Made by a program: the position numbers and the translations under genes. A stretch of DNA of 40,896 bases from a virus (taxonomy: Duplodnaviria; Caudoviricetes): positions 1 to 40,896 of the IMG/VR virus record IMGVR_UViG_3300049194_000147; one strand, 5' to 3'. Positions 23,479 to 28,020 of the stretch are shown here, piece after piece. A model generated the notes under the pieces. That model worked only from the letters and a program-made list of their open reading frames with translations. It was not told where the DNA came from and made no database searches. Position 1 is the stretch's first letter, and each line of letters opens with the position of its first letter.

Positions 23479-23620
23479 TATGTTTGTGATGCAAAACACT
23501 CTCTTCAATGAGACAAAAATTCCATTACAGACTAGTATTACCTAACTGGGCAGGCGAACGGTTGAAAGTACCGCAGCTTTTCTGTTGTCTCAACAGAGTG
23601 TTTTGCAGCGACCTGTCCAT
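23479..23620 (+). promoter_or_regulatory. Promoter (TATGTTTG) plus structured 5' leader
   Basis: -7 consensus at 23479-23486; inverted repeats 23490-23502/23595-23607 and 23509-23516/23585-23592. Confidence 0.55.
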
Positions 23621-23644
23621 TCTTTTCATTTCAAATTGTTTAAA

Positions 23645-23869
23645 ATGCAAAACACAACAAGCGATCAAAAGGCCCAATTAGCGGCCCATGTGCAAGACCT
23701 TTTTCAGCAAACCAGTGTACAGGAAATTGAGCAATGCCTGTGGGATATGTTTAACCGCACAGTAGAAAATGAAGATGCTACTATGCAAGAGGTTAAAGAT
23801 GCAGCGTTTTACTGCCGGTTACTAACAAGGTACCTGCACAGCATGCAGCTGTATGTTACATTACAGTAA
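23645..23869 (+). CDS. Small helical protein (paralog of 24101-24313)
   Basis: LAAHVQDLF...EIEQCLWDM versus LATEVKTFF...EIEQDLYDM. Confidence 0.7.
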   Translation: MQNTTSDQKAQLAAHVQDLFQQTSVQEIEQCLWDMFNRTVENEDATMQEVKDAAFYCRLLTRYLHSMQLYVTLQ

Positions 23870-24100: not shown

Positions 24101-24313
24101 ATGAGTAACACTCCAAAACCACAACCTACAGCGTTAGCCACCGAAGTAAAAACGTTTTTCGCTAACAGTACCGCAGCCGAAATTGAGCAGGATCTGTACG
24201 ATATGTTGCAGCTAAGCCTGGAGCACCAGCCCGATGTTCAGCATACCAAAGAAAAGCTGCACACCTACCGGGAGCTATCGCAGTTTTTGCACCGCATCAG
24301 CCAAATGGTTTAA
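24101..24313 (+). CDS. Small helical protein (paralog of 23645-23869)
   Basis: 70 aa, followed by its own terminator. Confidence 0.7.
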   Translation: MSNTPKPQPTALATEVKTFFANSTAAEIEQDLYDMLQLSLEHQPDVQHTKEKLHTYRELSQFLHRISQMV

Positions 24314-25083: not shown

Positions 25084-25395
25084 ATGATCAGTATTTCTTT
25101 AAAAGACAGCAACGGCAACAGCATGCAGTTAAATGATGTAGTGCTGATTCATTACACCAACCCATCGGTAAAGTACCTGGGCGTATTACAATTTTTTGAA
25201 GAAGAAGCCTGTTTCATTATCAGCGATAACGATGGAGATTACGAATACTGGCACCCCGGCATTTGGAGCAGTATTGAAAAAGTATGTGATGGTGGTTTTG
25301 CTTTTTCACTCGATCATTACTTTGGAAGAAATGAAACTACTACTGCTGCTATGATGAAAGCGGTGGAAGAGGTGAAGGCGGCGTTGTATGTATAA
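25084..25395 (+). CDS. YopX-like protein
   Basis: LKDSNGNSMQLNDVV resembles YopX LKDxNGxEIYEGDIV; its stop TAA lies in the array boundary GTATAAC. Confidence 0.5.
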   Translation: MISISLKDSNGNSMQLNDVVLIHYTNPSVKYLGVLQFFEEEACFIISDNDGDYEYWHPGIWSSIEKVCDGGFAFSLDHYFGRNETTTAAMMKAVEEVKAALYV

Positions 25396-25521
25396 CGTTC
25401 CCACGCTTGGCGAAGGTGGCGATTTACAGCACAAATGCCGATGCGGAGAACGAATGTTGAATATAGCAGTAAATATCGAGCGGAGTACTGCACCGCCACT
25501 TTTGCCAAACGTGTGTTATGC
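25390..25521. repeat. attC-like site A (132 bp)
   Basis: GTATAAC ... GTTATGC cores; arms 25402-25421 / 25494-25513 pair 17/20 plus 2 G.T. Confidence 0.75.
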
Positions 25522-25557
25522 GTTCGGGCTTTTTGGAAACGAATTAAATTTTAAAAT

Positions 25558-26088
25558 ATGAATAGTAAAATAATCAGCTTCGCAATAGAAGCACACAACA
25601 ACACAAACCATTTATACGATGGTAAACCTTATTCGGTGCATTTGTCAATGGTAGCAATGACCGCACAAAAGTATATTGATTGCATACCTGAACAAGCACA
25701 AAGCGATGTATTATCTGCTTGTTGGTTACACGATACAATTGAAGATTGCAGAATGACTTATAATGATATTAAGCAAGTAGCTGGTGAAGCGGTTGCAAAT
25801 ATTGTTTATGCCGTAACCAACGAAAAGGGTAAAAACCGAAAAGAAAGAGCAAATGATGCCTATTACGATGGTATTAGAAAAACAATGTGGGCAAAATATG
25901 TAAAGCTATGTGATAGACTTGCAAATGTTCAATACAGCTACGATAATACTTCAAGAATGTATGGTGTTTATCAAAAAGAGAATGATGCTTTTTTGCAAGC
26001 ATTGTTTCCGAATGAAAGCGAAATGCACCACTACCGAGATATTGTCAATGATTTGAAAATGTTGTTGGGTTACACGGTCGTAGCCTGA
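25558..26088 (+). CDS. HD-domain hydrolase, Mesh1/SpoT small alarmone hydrolase-like (cassette cargo)
   Basis: AH...GKPYSVHL...WLHDTIED...VKLCDRLAN motif set. Confidence 0.8.
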   Translation: MNSKIISFAIEAHNNTNHLYDGKPYSVHLSMVAMTAQKYIDCIPEQAQSDVLSACWLHDTIEDCRMTYNDIKQVAGEAVANIVYAVTNEKGKNRKERANDAYYDGIRKTMWAKYVKLCDRLANVQYSYDNTSRMYGVYQKENDAFLQALFPNESEMHHYRDIVNDLKMLLGYTVVA

Positions 26089-26089
26089 C

Positions 26090-26199
26090 GCATAACGGCC
26101 AGAAATTGCTGTTGTGCGCCCTGTACCGATGGAACATCGGAGTAAAAGGGCAAGCAACAGTTGAGGCAGACGGCGCATTATAGCAATTTACTGTTGGAC
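26090..26199. repeat. attC-like site B (110 bp)
   Basis: GCATAAC ... GTTGGAC cores; arms 26100-26120 / 26172-26193; inner CCGATG-GAA-CATCGG hairpin. Confidence 0.75.
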
Positions 26200-26349
26200 G
26201 CCGTACGGGAGTTGTGTTTAGCCTGCCGAATTTTCTGGCCGTTGGACAGCCATAAGTAAAACAAGGGAGTGTGAAGCATGAACACGGTTGGTTTACGGCT
26301 TTCACCCCGTATGAAGAAAACAAAATTTTTTAATCTTAAAATTATAATC

Positions 26350-26670
26350 ATGGAAAATTTAAACAAAGAAGGTCGCTATATCCTGATAGCATATCGTTAC
26401 GGTCATAAAGACGGACACAGTTATTTAGTTGATTTGTGTAGCGGAATTGATACTGCAACAGAACGTGCAGATGCAGAAGCTATGGATAGAGGTGGAAAAT
26501 ACTCTGTATCCGTTTTCGCTGTCCGTACATACGGAGAAATTGAAGAAGTGTATGAGGCAAAATGCCCTGAACATTATACACAAGGAACTCAATCGTTGCA
26601 TCAAGCGCATGAACAATTAAAGAAAGATATAAAAGAAGGGCTTTCTGCTTTGTCTGTATTATTGTCTTAA
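26350..26670 (+). CDS. Hypothetical protein (cassette cargo, 106 aa)
   Basis: ATG at 26350 after an AT-rich leader; bracketed by inverted repeat 26299-26323 / 26671-26696. Confidence 0.7.
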   Translation: MENLNKEGRYILIAYRYGHKDGHSYLVDLCSGIDTATERADAEAMDRGGKYSVSVFAVRTYGEIEEVYEAKCPEHYTQGTQSLHQAHEQLKKDIKEGLSALSVLLS

Positions 26671-26703
26671 TTGTTTTCTGAATTACGGGGTGAAAGTATG
26701 GCG

Positions 26704-26938
26704 GTCCAACGATCGGGGTGTTTGCGAAGTGGTGTTTTAAAAAATCAATTATTAAACAATTAAAATTTATAAAATGAGCAACGAGAACGATGACGTTAGT
26801 GAAGCTAAGGGATGCCTATTTTACGTATTGGCATTTGCAGTTTTGGTTTTTACATTAAAGTACGGTTGTAATTGATTTTTTAAATAAGCCACGAAAGCAA
26901 GCGACCAACAGCCCCATTTCGTAAACACCATGTAAGGC
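26704..26938. repeat. attC-like site C (235 bp) with a small ORF in its loop
   Basis: GTCCAAC ... GTAAGGC cores; arms 26717-26732 / 26914-26929; inner perfect 16-bp IR 26736-26751 / 26869-26884. Confidence 0.7.
26774..26875 (+). CDS. 33-aa single-TM peptide
   Basis: MSNENDDVSEAKGCLFYVLAFAVLVFTLKYGCN with AT-rich Bacteroidota-type leader. Confidence 0.5.
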   Translation: MSNENDDVSEAKGCLFYVLAFAVLVFTLKYGCN

Positions 26939-27138
26939 GAAGGTTGCCAGCGAAGCTATCACCTTAAACAATCAACACTTACACGGGGGCTGTGGGTGCA
27001 ACCACGATCGTAAGGCAAAATTTAGGGGCTGGGAACGTAGCGAAGCGAAGTGAAAGCACCGTGTGCGGAGGATTATGTGTGTTGGCAAATTTTGCCTTAC
27101 AAGTTGATTAGCGAACCTACTATAAAAATCAATCTATT

Positions 27139-28020
27139 ATGAACAGAGCACAGGAATTAAAGTACAAGTTTATGCGGGAGTTAAAGCTGCGTAATTATGC
27201 AGATAGCAGCATACGTACCTATGCCGATTGCATTATGCAGTACTTTAAGTTTATGAATGGCAAAAAGCCTGCCGATGCCGCTGCTCATATTGAATTGATT
27301 AAAGATTATCTGCTCAGCATTAAAAACCAAAACTACCACAAACAAATGCTTGCAGCCATCCGCAACTTTCACAAGTTTGTATTAAAGCAACCGCTTAGCC
27401 TGGGCGATGTGCCTTACCCACGTGCAACAGATTATTTACCCGAAATACTTAACCTGCAGGAAACAAACAAACTGCTGGCCAGCTACAGCAACATTAAGCA
27501 CCGGGCCATTATTACATTGATGTATGTGTGTGGCTTACGTATTGGCGAAGTGCCAAAAATTAAAATAAGCCATGTAGATGGTGGGCGTGGATTGATCCGT
27601 ATTGCAGGTGCCAAAGGGTTTAAAGATCGGGATGTGCCGGTACCAGCCGATACGTTGCAACTGCTGCGTACTTACTTTACCCAATACCAACCAAAAGAAT
27701 GGCTGTTTGAAGGTCAGCAAAAAGGAGAGCAGTACACCGTACGCAGCATACAGCAATTGTTTTACCAGGGCTGCCGCCGTATAGGCTTACGTAAAAAAGT
27801 AAGGCCGCACGGTTTACGCCACAGCCGGGCTACTCACTTAAAAGAGGCTGGTGTGGATATAAAAGACATTGCCGATTTTTTAGGCCATTACCGCATACAA
27901 ACCACAGAGCTGTATTTAAAACTCAGCAAAAAAACATTGGTGAACCGTATTGCTATGGCAGATGAATTATTGAAACAGATTTTTAAACAGGAAGCAAAAG
28001 AAGCACTTACTTACGCATGA
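27139..28020 (+). CDS. Tyrosine recombinase, integron-integrase-like with N-terminal SAM-like domain, no IntI insertion
   Basis: LRNYADSSIRTY N-domain; GLRIGE (R), KGFKDR (K), HGLRHS (HxxR), LGH...TTELY (H, Y); short spacer WLFEG...YTVRS. Confidence 0.9.
   Translation: MNRAQELKYKFMRELKLRNYADSSIRTYADCIMQYFKFMNGKKPADAAAHIELIKDYLLSIKNQNYHKQMLAAIRNFHKFVLKQPLSLGDVPYPRATDYLPEILNLQETNKLLASYSNIKHRAIITLMYVCGLRIGEVPKIKISHVDGGRGLIRIAGAKGFKDRDVPVPADTLQLLRTYFTQYQPKEWLFEGQQKGEQYTVRSIQQLFYQGCRRIGLRKKVRPHGLRHSRATHLKEAGVDIKDIADFLGHYRIQTTELYLKLSKKTLVNRIAMADELLKQIFKQEAKEALTYA

Follow-up and report, generated by a model that had tools for sequence, protein, structure and literature searches.

A second partner arm complementary to both cassette ends recurs in an integron-like phage array and is predicted to switch single-strand folds

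Introduction

Two adjacent cassettes of a phage genome, here called C (26097..26710) and D (26711..27100), each carry an internal 23-mer that reads as the reverse complement of the cassette's own end joined to its own start, which raises the question of why a cassette should hold a copy of its own circle junction. An earlier note on this DNA, written from the letters alone, had offered several readings of the copy: a splint or guide of DNA or RNA that aligns both ends for the tyrosine recombinase encoded nearby, a decoy that sequesters the attC fold, a second inverted recombination site, or a mere recombination scar. The window, that is the whole stretch of DNA that was analysed, is an entire virus record of 40,896 bases that encodes a portal, a head protease, a terminase, a primase and a serine recombinase, and the sequencing runs that contain it are soil metagenomes. 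We infer that the host of the phage belongs to the Bacteroidota, since the closest genome matches of the protein encoded at 27139 are Ferruginibacter and Sediminibacterium contigs. All features below lie on the plus strand, and the arms are named R', R'', L' and L'' following the available text of PMC9892861, PMC8618304, PMC5371416, PMC4792948, PMC2727003, PMC8138268 and PMC6393395.

Results

An integron-like array with an Xer-like recombinase

The tyrosine recombinase gene (27139..28020, 293 aa) is divergent from the array, as in integrons, and its product is Xer-like, with the catalytic R, K, H, R, H and Y invariant in 55 aligned sequences. The protein scores under the cutoffs of the integron-integrase, XerA, XerC and XerD models (124 bits against a cutoff of 265 for TIGR02249), and against IntI4 it aligns as two pieces with ~42 residues missing, a region that the accessible part of PMC4792948 places at the I2 insertion; this IntI insertion is absent here. 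An attI-like site, made of a core, a 7-nt spacer and an L-box motif, occupies 27098..27116, and the same arrangement, with an AAC core, is kept ~40 nt upstream of related integrase genes. Over ~30 loci the sequence 3' of the core is conserved and that 5' of it variable, as expected of attI. The platform thus appears integron-like in its working, but the recombinase is no member of the IntI group, and its recombination activity is a prediction from sequence.

A profile of the recombinase matched 133 of 401 Bacteroidota genomes at E < 1e-50, a count that takes in other Xer-like proteins, the attI-like site being present in only some of the 30 loci inspected. Because the platform is without the IntI signature, integrase models that need this signature would likely miss such arrays. 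Gene-bearing cassettes on chromosomes have the canonical gene direction in 20 of 20 cases, whereas the direction is reversed in 172 of 178 viral or other cassettes and in 0 of the 20 chromosomal ones. Two genomes, G112 and G088, hold several attI-like sites each (L200-L203, L208), every one followed by the start of an integrase-like reading frame, and probably contain several such platforms per chromosome.

In the window (25084-25396) and in the closest viral homologue (L001:6607-6925), an ordinary phage gene ends in an AAC at which the array starts. The position of the module in the genome differs among related phages; the platform may thus be mobile in its own right. The protein encoded by the sole cassette of that homologue (L001:7157-7909) looks, on visual inspection, like a DNA cytosine methyltransferase. 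Upstream of the array in the window lie two short similar ORFs, at 23585-23869 and 24101-24313, with a 29-nt repeat (79 percent) and a terminator-like hairpin 3' of each. No reverse transcriptase and no HUH transposase were found among the 22 proteins scanned, and protein and profile scans found no DEDD recombinase of the kind that bridge or seek RNA systems would have.

Cassette boundaries lie at the core

The first cassette of interest, without a second arm, is 700 bp long (25397..26096) and carries a gene for an HD-domain phosphohydrolase (25558..26088; PF13328, phrog_990). Its ordinary attC-like hairpin (25390..25521) has an AAC core, a 4-nt bulge, an L stem and a partner arm at 25515. Two of eight sequencing runs (two of the four in the first set) contained an allele from which exactly these 700 bases were absent, the skip joint having a depth of 12.5 versus 16 and of 4.6 versus 9.2; the joint was not found in the other four runs, which were shallow and broken. 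Skips of C or D were absent from the runs with the HD skip, and neither circle junctions nor inversion joints were found in the eight runs, all of these searches being of contigs, which drop rare forms. Homologues of cassette D have different neighbours, and the point at which their flanks switch is the core. Cassette gain and loss are hence precise at the core, as in integrons, in both the 700-base skip and the D homologues. Since the attI-like sites by related integrases, the HD-skip joint and the neighbours of the D homologues all place the switch at the core, the boundaries given in the earlier note were right.

If the array is read as an integron on the minus strand, these boundaries coincide with the canonical G|TT crossover, and the plus strand is therefore the folding strand (the 'bottom' strand of integrons). 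A strand bias agrees with this: ordinary arms hold 70 G:T against 3 A:C cells, and the L stem is predicted to form at 0.85 on the plus versus 0.59 on the minus strand of 29 controls. The sites are thus attC-like in being one-strand hairpins that have R and L boxes, an unpaired spacer and a strand bias, where bulges were scored as the 3-5 nt bulge on the cleaved arm alone. A canonical plus-strand reading, in which the 23-mer would be the simple 3' arm and contain the crossover in its middle, was rejected because the attI homologues, the read joint and the D-homologue neighbours put the crossover at the AAC core. A contig of 151 bases from run X3 matches the HD site (window 25405-25510) in both arms but differs in its flanks, and thus represents a related cassette site in that sample.

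The 23-mers are second partner arms

Both 23-mers lie where they had been reported, at 26232..26254 in C (centre G 26241) and at 27001..27023 in D (centre G 27010); each matches the reverse complement of its own cassette's end and start at 22 of 23 positions, with sharp ends on both sides, and the HD cassette indeed lacks one, matching at 13 of 22 scored positions. Their description as internal pairing copies stands, but they are not the only arms: the ordinary arms of C (26193-26205) and D (26932-26951) had been overlooked. Every cassette has such an ordinary arm, whose sequence complements the far end of the cassette and which closes a hairpin with a bulge, and in C and D the 23-mer is a second, bulge-free partner arm beside it. 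An attC has a single R'' arm; C, D and 18 of 88 cassettes have two.

Cassette C (614 bp) begins with the spacer 3' of the crossover (26097..26105), which is paired by the left half of its 23-mer, followed by the L' arm (26106..26120), and ends in an extended R' box with the crossover in AAC (26697..26710); its ordinary R'' arm, copy 1 (26193..26205), is one base shorter than the end that it pairs. The cargo ORF (26350..26670) encodes 106 aa, or 130 aa from an upstream ATG at 26278, and matched no Pfam or PHROG family; a perfect 13-bp inverted repeat (26299..26311 with 26684-26696) encloses the cargo gene. Cassette D (390 bp) adjoins attI, and its end (27087..27100) has the core TAC and not AAC; its copy 1 lies at 26932..26951. 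Within the attC loop of D is a 33-aa ORF (26774..26875) flanked by a 15-bp inverted repeat (26736-26750 / 26870-26884), while the D homologues are gene-less, 263-273 nt long, and have a short hairpin at this position, so that capture of cargo inside the site itself is possible.

In the window by itself an unconstrained search over cut points does not prove the second arm, as the score of 25 for 26097-26710 was reached by 1 of 30 shuffles and that of 23 for 26711-27100 by 9 of 30, and boundaries were therefore fixed independently of the 23-mer. For this we used 88 distinct cassettes called without use of the second arm (two duplicates dropped), of which approximately 72 were kept after score filters from 100 automatic calls and 16 were listed by hand. 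With fixed boundaries, 18 cassettes scored 21-22 of 22 and 70 scored 12-16, with none at 17-20, and the 1047 cross-cassette controls scored 18 at most; the second arm is thus far beyond chance once boundaries are set independently. In a second cassette set, 4 of 117 were carriers, in addition to one mis-ended call; the caller of this set required a strong ordinary arm, which is often absent in carriers, and the true frequency of the second arm therefore lies between 3 and 20 percent.

A direct scan for second arms gave 52 matches in 1.84 Mb of loci and none in one shuffle per locus. Removing 22 mirror readings and two fused calls and adding two cassettes from the set of 88 left 30 carriers, in which Watson-Crick pairs fill 642 of 660 core cells, in part because carriers were selected on the match. 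Their arms lie before, inside or after the gene and in most families end at the L box. A Watson-Crick pair stands at position 11 in 30 of 30 second arms, but 54 of 70 ordinary arms have G:T there. There were no flipped isomers in the 30 carriers, and no enrichment of carriers beside attI (4 of 18 carriers versus 18 of 70 others). One locus of Thermobacterium salinum (L068:4500-10060) holds at least seven consecutive second-arm cassettes, two with the arm inside coding sequence. Several carrier families (L018:3196-3618, L068:5557-6913, L068:8397-8822, L191, L193 and L197) have a small hairpin with a TCGAT loop between the gene-flanking stem and the end box, which forms a second predicted three-way junction.

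The proposal that the copy is a second inverted recombination site on double-stranded DNA was not supported for the usual geometry, because in most families the copy ends at the L box and the duplex spacer would be 9-10 bp; a mimic of attI was likewise rejected, as the spacer would be 9-10 versus 7 nt in attI.

Both arms covary with the cassette ends

Since the second arm covaries with the cassette ends in homologous arrays, within families that include the homologues of C and D, it is no one-off scar, and the covariation that the earlier note had predicted is borne out. In six families grouped by eye (22 cassettes) there were 63 additional pair types that are Watson-Crick and 7 types that are not. 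Homologues of D, found with a search pattern that left out the varying half of the arm, which makes the test less circular, compensate at three of three loci, which between them have two further start sequences, each compensated; a DNA search for the D family in four genomes gave no matches, and the seven loci from a second D pattern were two contigs already known and five unrelated ones. The C homologue L179, with other cargo, has compensated changes in both arm halves. For mini-cassette homologues from BLAST, 144 of 144 cells on the end side were paired in 12 sequences parsed with a 7-of-10 end filter, the other 17 loci being unparsed; on the start side, 8 of the 11 non-Watson-Crick cells come from one mis-started sequence.

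The ordinary arm, copy 1, also tracks changes in the cassette end, one pair of the L stem is compensatory in the mini-cassette family, and in L179 the L' segment of C changes along with both its partners. The ordinary fold, judged from these substitutions, thus appears to be under selection as well.

Two mutually exclusive folds are predicted

Carriers were folded as single-stranded circles with DNA parameters, and two folds emerged on the plus strand that are predicted to be mutually exclusive. Fold 1 would be the bulged attC; in fold 2 the 23-mer would pair both cassette ends, with L'' captured and L' usually free. Fold 2, comprising the junction and the second arm, had a predicted probability of 0.85-1.0 in 18 of 18 carrier circles, the ordinary arm was used by none of the 18, and the L stem was lost in 15, in predictions that contain neither proteins nor kinetics. 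Forcing four core pairs with the ordinary arm cost 4.5-35 kcal/mol (22 for C, 15 for D), the forced fold not always being a full attC.

In 19 of 22 cassettes a third helix is predicted, in which the segment immediately 5' of the second arm pairs with the 3' side of the attC loop. For 18 of the 22 it scores above the 95th percentile of pairings between different cassettes, and its mean was reached by 0 of 20000 permutations; it thus seems cassette-specific and is predicted to capture the ordinary hairpin arm. In C it would pair 26223..26227 with 26165-26169, and 26170-26175 would also pair 26199-26204, hiding copy 1; the L' arm would have its partners at 26154-26161 in fold 2 and at ~26173-26192 in fold 1. 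In D the 3' side of the attC loop, at the base of the L'' arm (26908..26915), would be captured by 26986-26993, a segment pair whose 26908..26915 side covaries in the D family, and 26931-26936 of the ordinary arm would be hidden by 26978-26983.

These predictions support, in silico, both the simultaneous pairing of the two ends by the 23-mer and, with the third helix, the proposed sequestration of the attC fold. Pairing across the junction also stands, but a strict requirement for the circle does not, since the two halves also pair in predictions for the linear strand, where fold 2 was dominant in 12 of 16 cassettes and in both window cassettes. Because the ordinary fold covaries as well, we predict a two-state single-strand switch, and a selected two-state fold very probably exists, whatever its sign.

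A fourth arm, formed by the upstream core with the arm of the next cassette, had a predicted mean of 0.19 versus 0.02 in controls; it reached at least 0.4 in 4 of 16 cassettes, one of these not in fold 2, and for C of the window it was predicted at 0.0001.

Gene-less carriers reach several copies

A gene-less mini-cassette of 124-125 nt, built only of these parts, has matches in 17 of 301 genomes, with six identical copies in G112, six in G088 and five in G048. Six of these 17 copies adjoin an attI-like site, ten another attC, and one has a flank that is neither. In the 10-kb array stretches of G112 and G088, where 40 of 63 and 40 of 56 candidates were scored, the mini-cassette is the only cassette copied elsewhere. 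A gene-less carrier of 267 nt occurs four times in one array, which also has a 577-nt duplication without a second arm. Because gene-less carriers reach four to six copies per genome, a simple lock or scar is disfavoured.

The copy with the unlike flank (L199, G112:C1:158148-158272) has a downstream sequence that resembles neither attI nor attC, which suggests insertion at a secondary site. Elsewhere (L114:15585-15633, G152), an ordinary gene cassette has a bulge-free hairpin site of 49 nt that looks derived from the left domain of the mini-cassette with its interior inverted, and that may have been left by recombination or by flipping at the second arm.

Discussion

The second arm is real, recurrent and under selection, and its functional role is a prediction. 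We tentatively favour, at somewhat less than even confidence, self-splinted excision with fold 2, the ordinary fold being kept for re-insertion. Replication would expose the strand, and fold 2 would then free the two flanks while placing both cassette ends side by side, so that the recombinase would need only strand exchange at the two AAC cores, as in Holliday junction resolution. Tyrosine recombinases resolve pre-formed junctions. The circle would depart as a sealed dumbbell, unable to react back, and fold 1 would be reserved for re-insertion at attI; the switch would thereby likely promote the cassette's own excision and spread. We favour self-splinting because it accounts for an arm centred on the crossover, for a duplex free of wobble pairs, for a helix that takes the attC apart and for the multi-copy gene-less carriers, even if their copy number may stem from small size instead of the arm.

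Self-splinting has its weak points, namely that the fourth arm is poorly predicted and that the return of the circle to fold 1, against a modelled 15-30 kcal/mol, is unexplained. The missing circle and inversion joints in the eight runs, the missing skips of C and D and the even distribution of carriers beside attI also count against it. For IntI1, the text at hand of PMC5371416 reports that a low attC folding probability lowers excision, which by analogy would speak against it too. Stated in full, the scheme is a possible but doubtful one: the strand would pre-fold into the two excision products, the Xer-like recombinase would resolve a ready-made four-way junction, and the outcome would be MITE-like selfish mini-cassettes, with ends reprogrammable via one 23-mer, on an undescribed integron-like system of Bacteroidota shared by chromosomes and phages.

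Fold 2 might instead be a non-recombinogenic form of storage, lowering excision of the cassette and its neighbour or protecting the circle, up to its conversion into fold 1 by integrase or SSB. We consider this unlikely, even though the bulge and the L stem are lost in the predicted fold 2 and C and D are fixed in runs in which HD is polymorphic. The same idea draws on IntI1, for which pairing the central spacer in the absence of extrahelical bases cut recombination 8.5x10^4-fold (PMC2727003, available text) and sites of low folding probability excised poorly (PMC5371416, likewise). Against it, gene-less carriers are the most repeated cassettes and often lie at attI, and the HD-minus allele requires recombination at the left site of C, unless it arose by slippage over six shared bases, which is also possible.

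Rather improbable, in our view, is that fold 2 serves as a strand-symmetric recombination site, allowing insertion in either orientation or at extra targets. Such a substrate may be the origin of the reversed genes in phage as against chromosomal cassettes (172/178 versus 0/20), and the Watson-Crick pair at position 11, the bulge-free site of L114 with its inverted interior and the mini-cassette copy with a non-att flank all fit it. The 9-10 bp spacer does not, nor do the unpaired L' in most families and the lack of a flipped isomer in the 30 carriers.

Near-perfect inverted repeats can be homogenised without selection. The second arm could accordingly be a functionless junction copy that arose by inverted duplication and whose identity is maintained when repair or template switching acts on the folded circle, and the 30 carriers were partly chosen by match; we give this little credence, because families that are unrelated share a fixed geometry of ~9+13, a third helix stands apart from the arm, and one segment covaries with two partners.

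Least probable, and in our judgement very much so, is a recombinase-bound RNA acting in trans in the style of bridge or seek RNAs: a plus-strand transcript would be complementary to the recombining strand and some gene-less carriers are highly structured, but the arm may sit before, inside or after the gene, in some cassettes within coding sequence, and works with a third helix in cis, G:T pairs are nearly absent (2 of 660 cells), promoter-like sites numbered 8 versus 10.6 in shuffles in a sigma-70 scan, and the cassettes had no Rfam match. Promoter and terminator scans of the cassettes were at chance level, and six RNA runs contained 0.05-0.08 of the words of the stretch.

Open questions on integrons include how cassettes control their own mobility and how multi-copy gene-less cassettes persist, and a cassette-encoded, covarying two-state DNA fold offers a direct test on a natural substrate of 125 nt. 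Should the arm be a splint, it would be a new form of base pairing that steers a tyrosine recombinase, and a compact, programmable tool for making circles; should it be a brake, it would be a cassette-level regulator of a kind not found in the literature searched. That literature, which included few subscription papers, described no second junction-complementary arm and no such Xer-like platform in Bacteroidota; the supplementary material of PMC9892861, with its lists of phage attC sites, may be relevant to the platform.

The system resembles integrons, as far as the accessible text of PMC2727003, PMC5371416 and PMC4792948 describes them, in its divergent integrase, its attI, its array and the crossover at an AAC core, and in a one-strand hairpin with an unpaired spacer whose cassette ends are complementary in the circle. 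In most integron cassettes in those texts this end complementarity spans 9-11 nt, whereas here it is ~13-17 nt; the present cassettes differ further by a complete second arm whose pairing includes the spacer, a third helix predicted to dismantle the site, an Xer-like enzyme without the I2 insertion, and reversed genes in phage arrays. Alternative attC folds (a kinked hairpin, sites of low folding probability) are similar in that a non-canonical fold rivals the recombinogenic hairpin, yet as presented in the available parts of PMC6393395 and PMC5371416 they are near-isoenergetic and lie inside the site, while here a dedicated covarying element up to ~1 kb off pairs both ends. The paralogous non-coding cassettes of Vibrio are likewise gene-less, conserved and multi-copy and have been suggested to be selfish or regulatory, and a junction-complementary arm is not described for them in the passages available from PMC1382264. 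Bacteroidota phages, too, have attC-like sites in the CALINs of Polaribacter phage P12002L, one of which was recombined by IntI1, and the main account in PMC9892861, as available, reports neither a cognate Xer-like integrase nor a second arm; our caller retained five P12002L cassettes, and none had a second arm.

Element-encoded pairing of strand ends and single-stranded circle intermediates are also known from the folded attP of CTX phage. In the guides of IS608 and the seekRNA of IS110/IS1111, pairing encoded by the element selects or aligns strand ends, with single-stranded circles among the forms (PMC5027513 and PMC11187229, partial texts). Those elements work with HUH and DEDD enzymes and with 4-nt DNA guides or a separate, target-matching RNA, whereas the cassettes described here carry a 22-23 nt match in cis to their own ends and are paired with a tyrosine recombinase.
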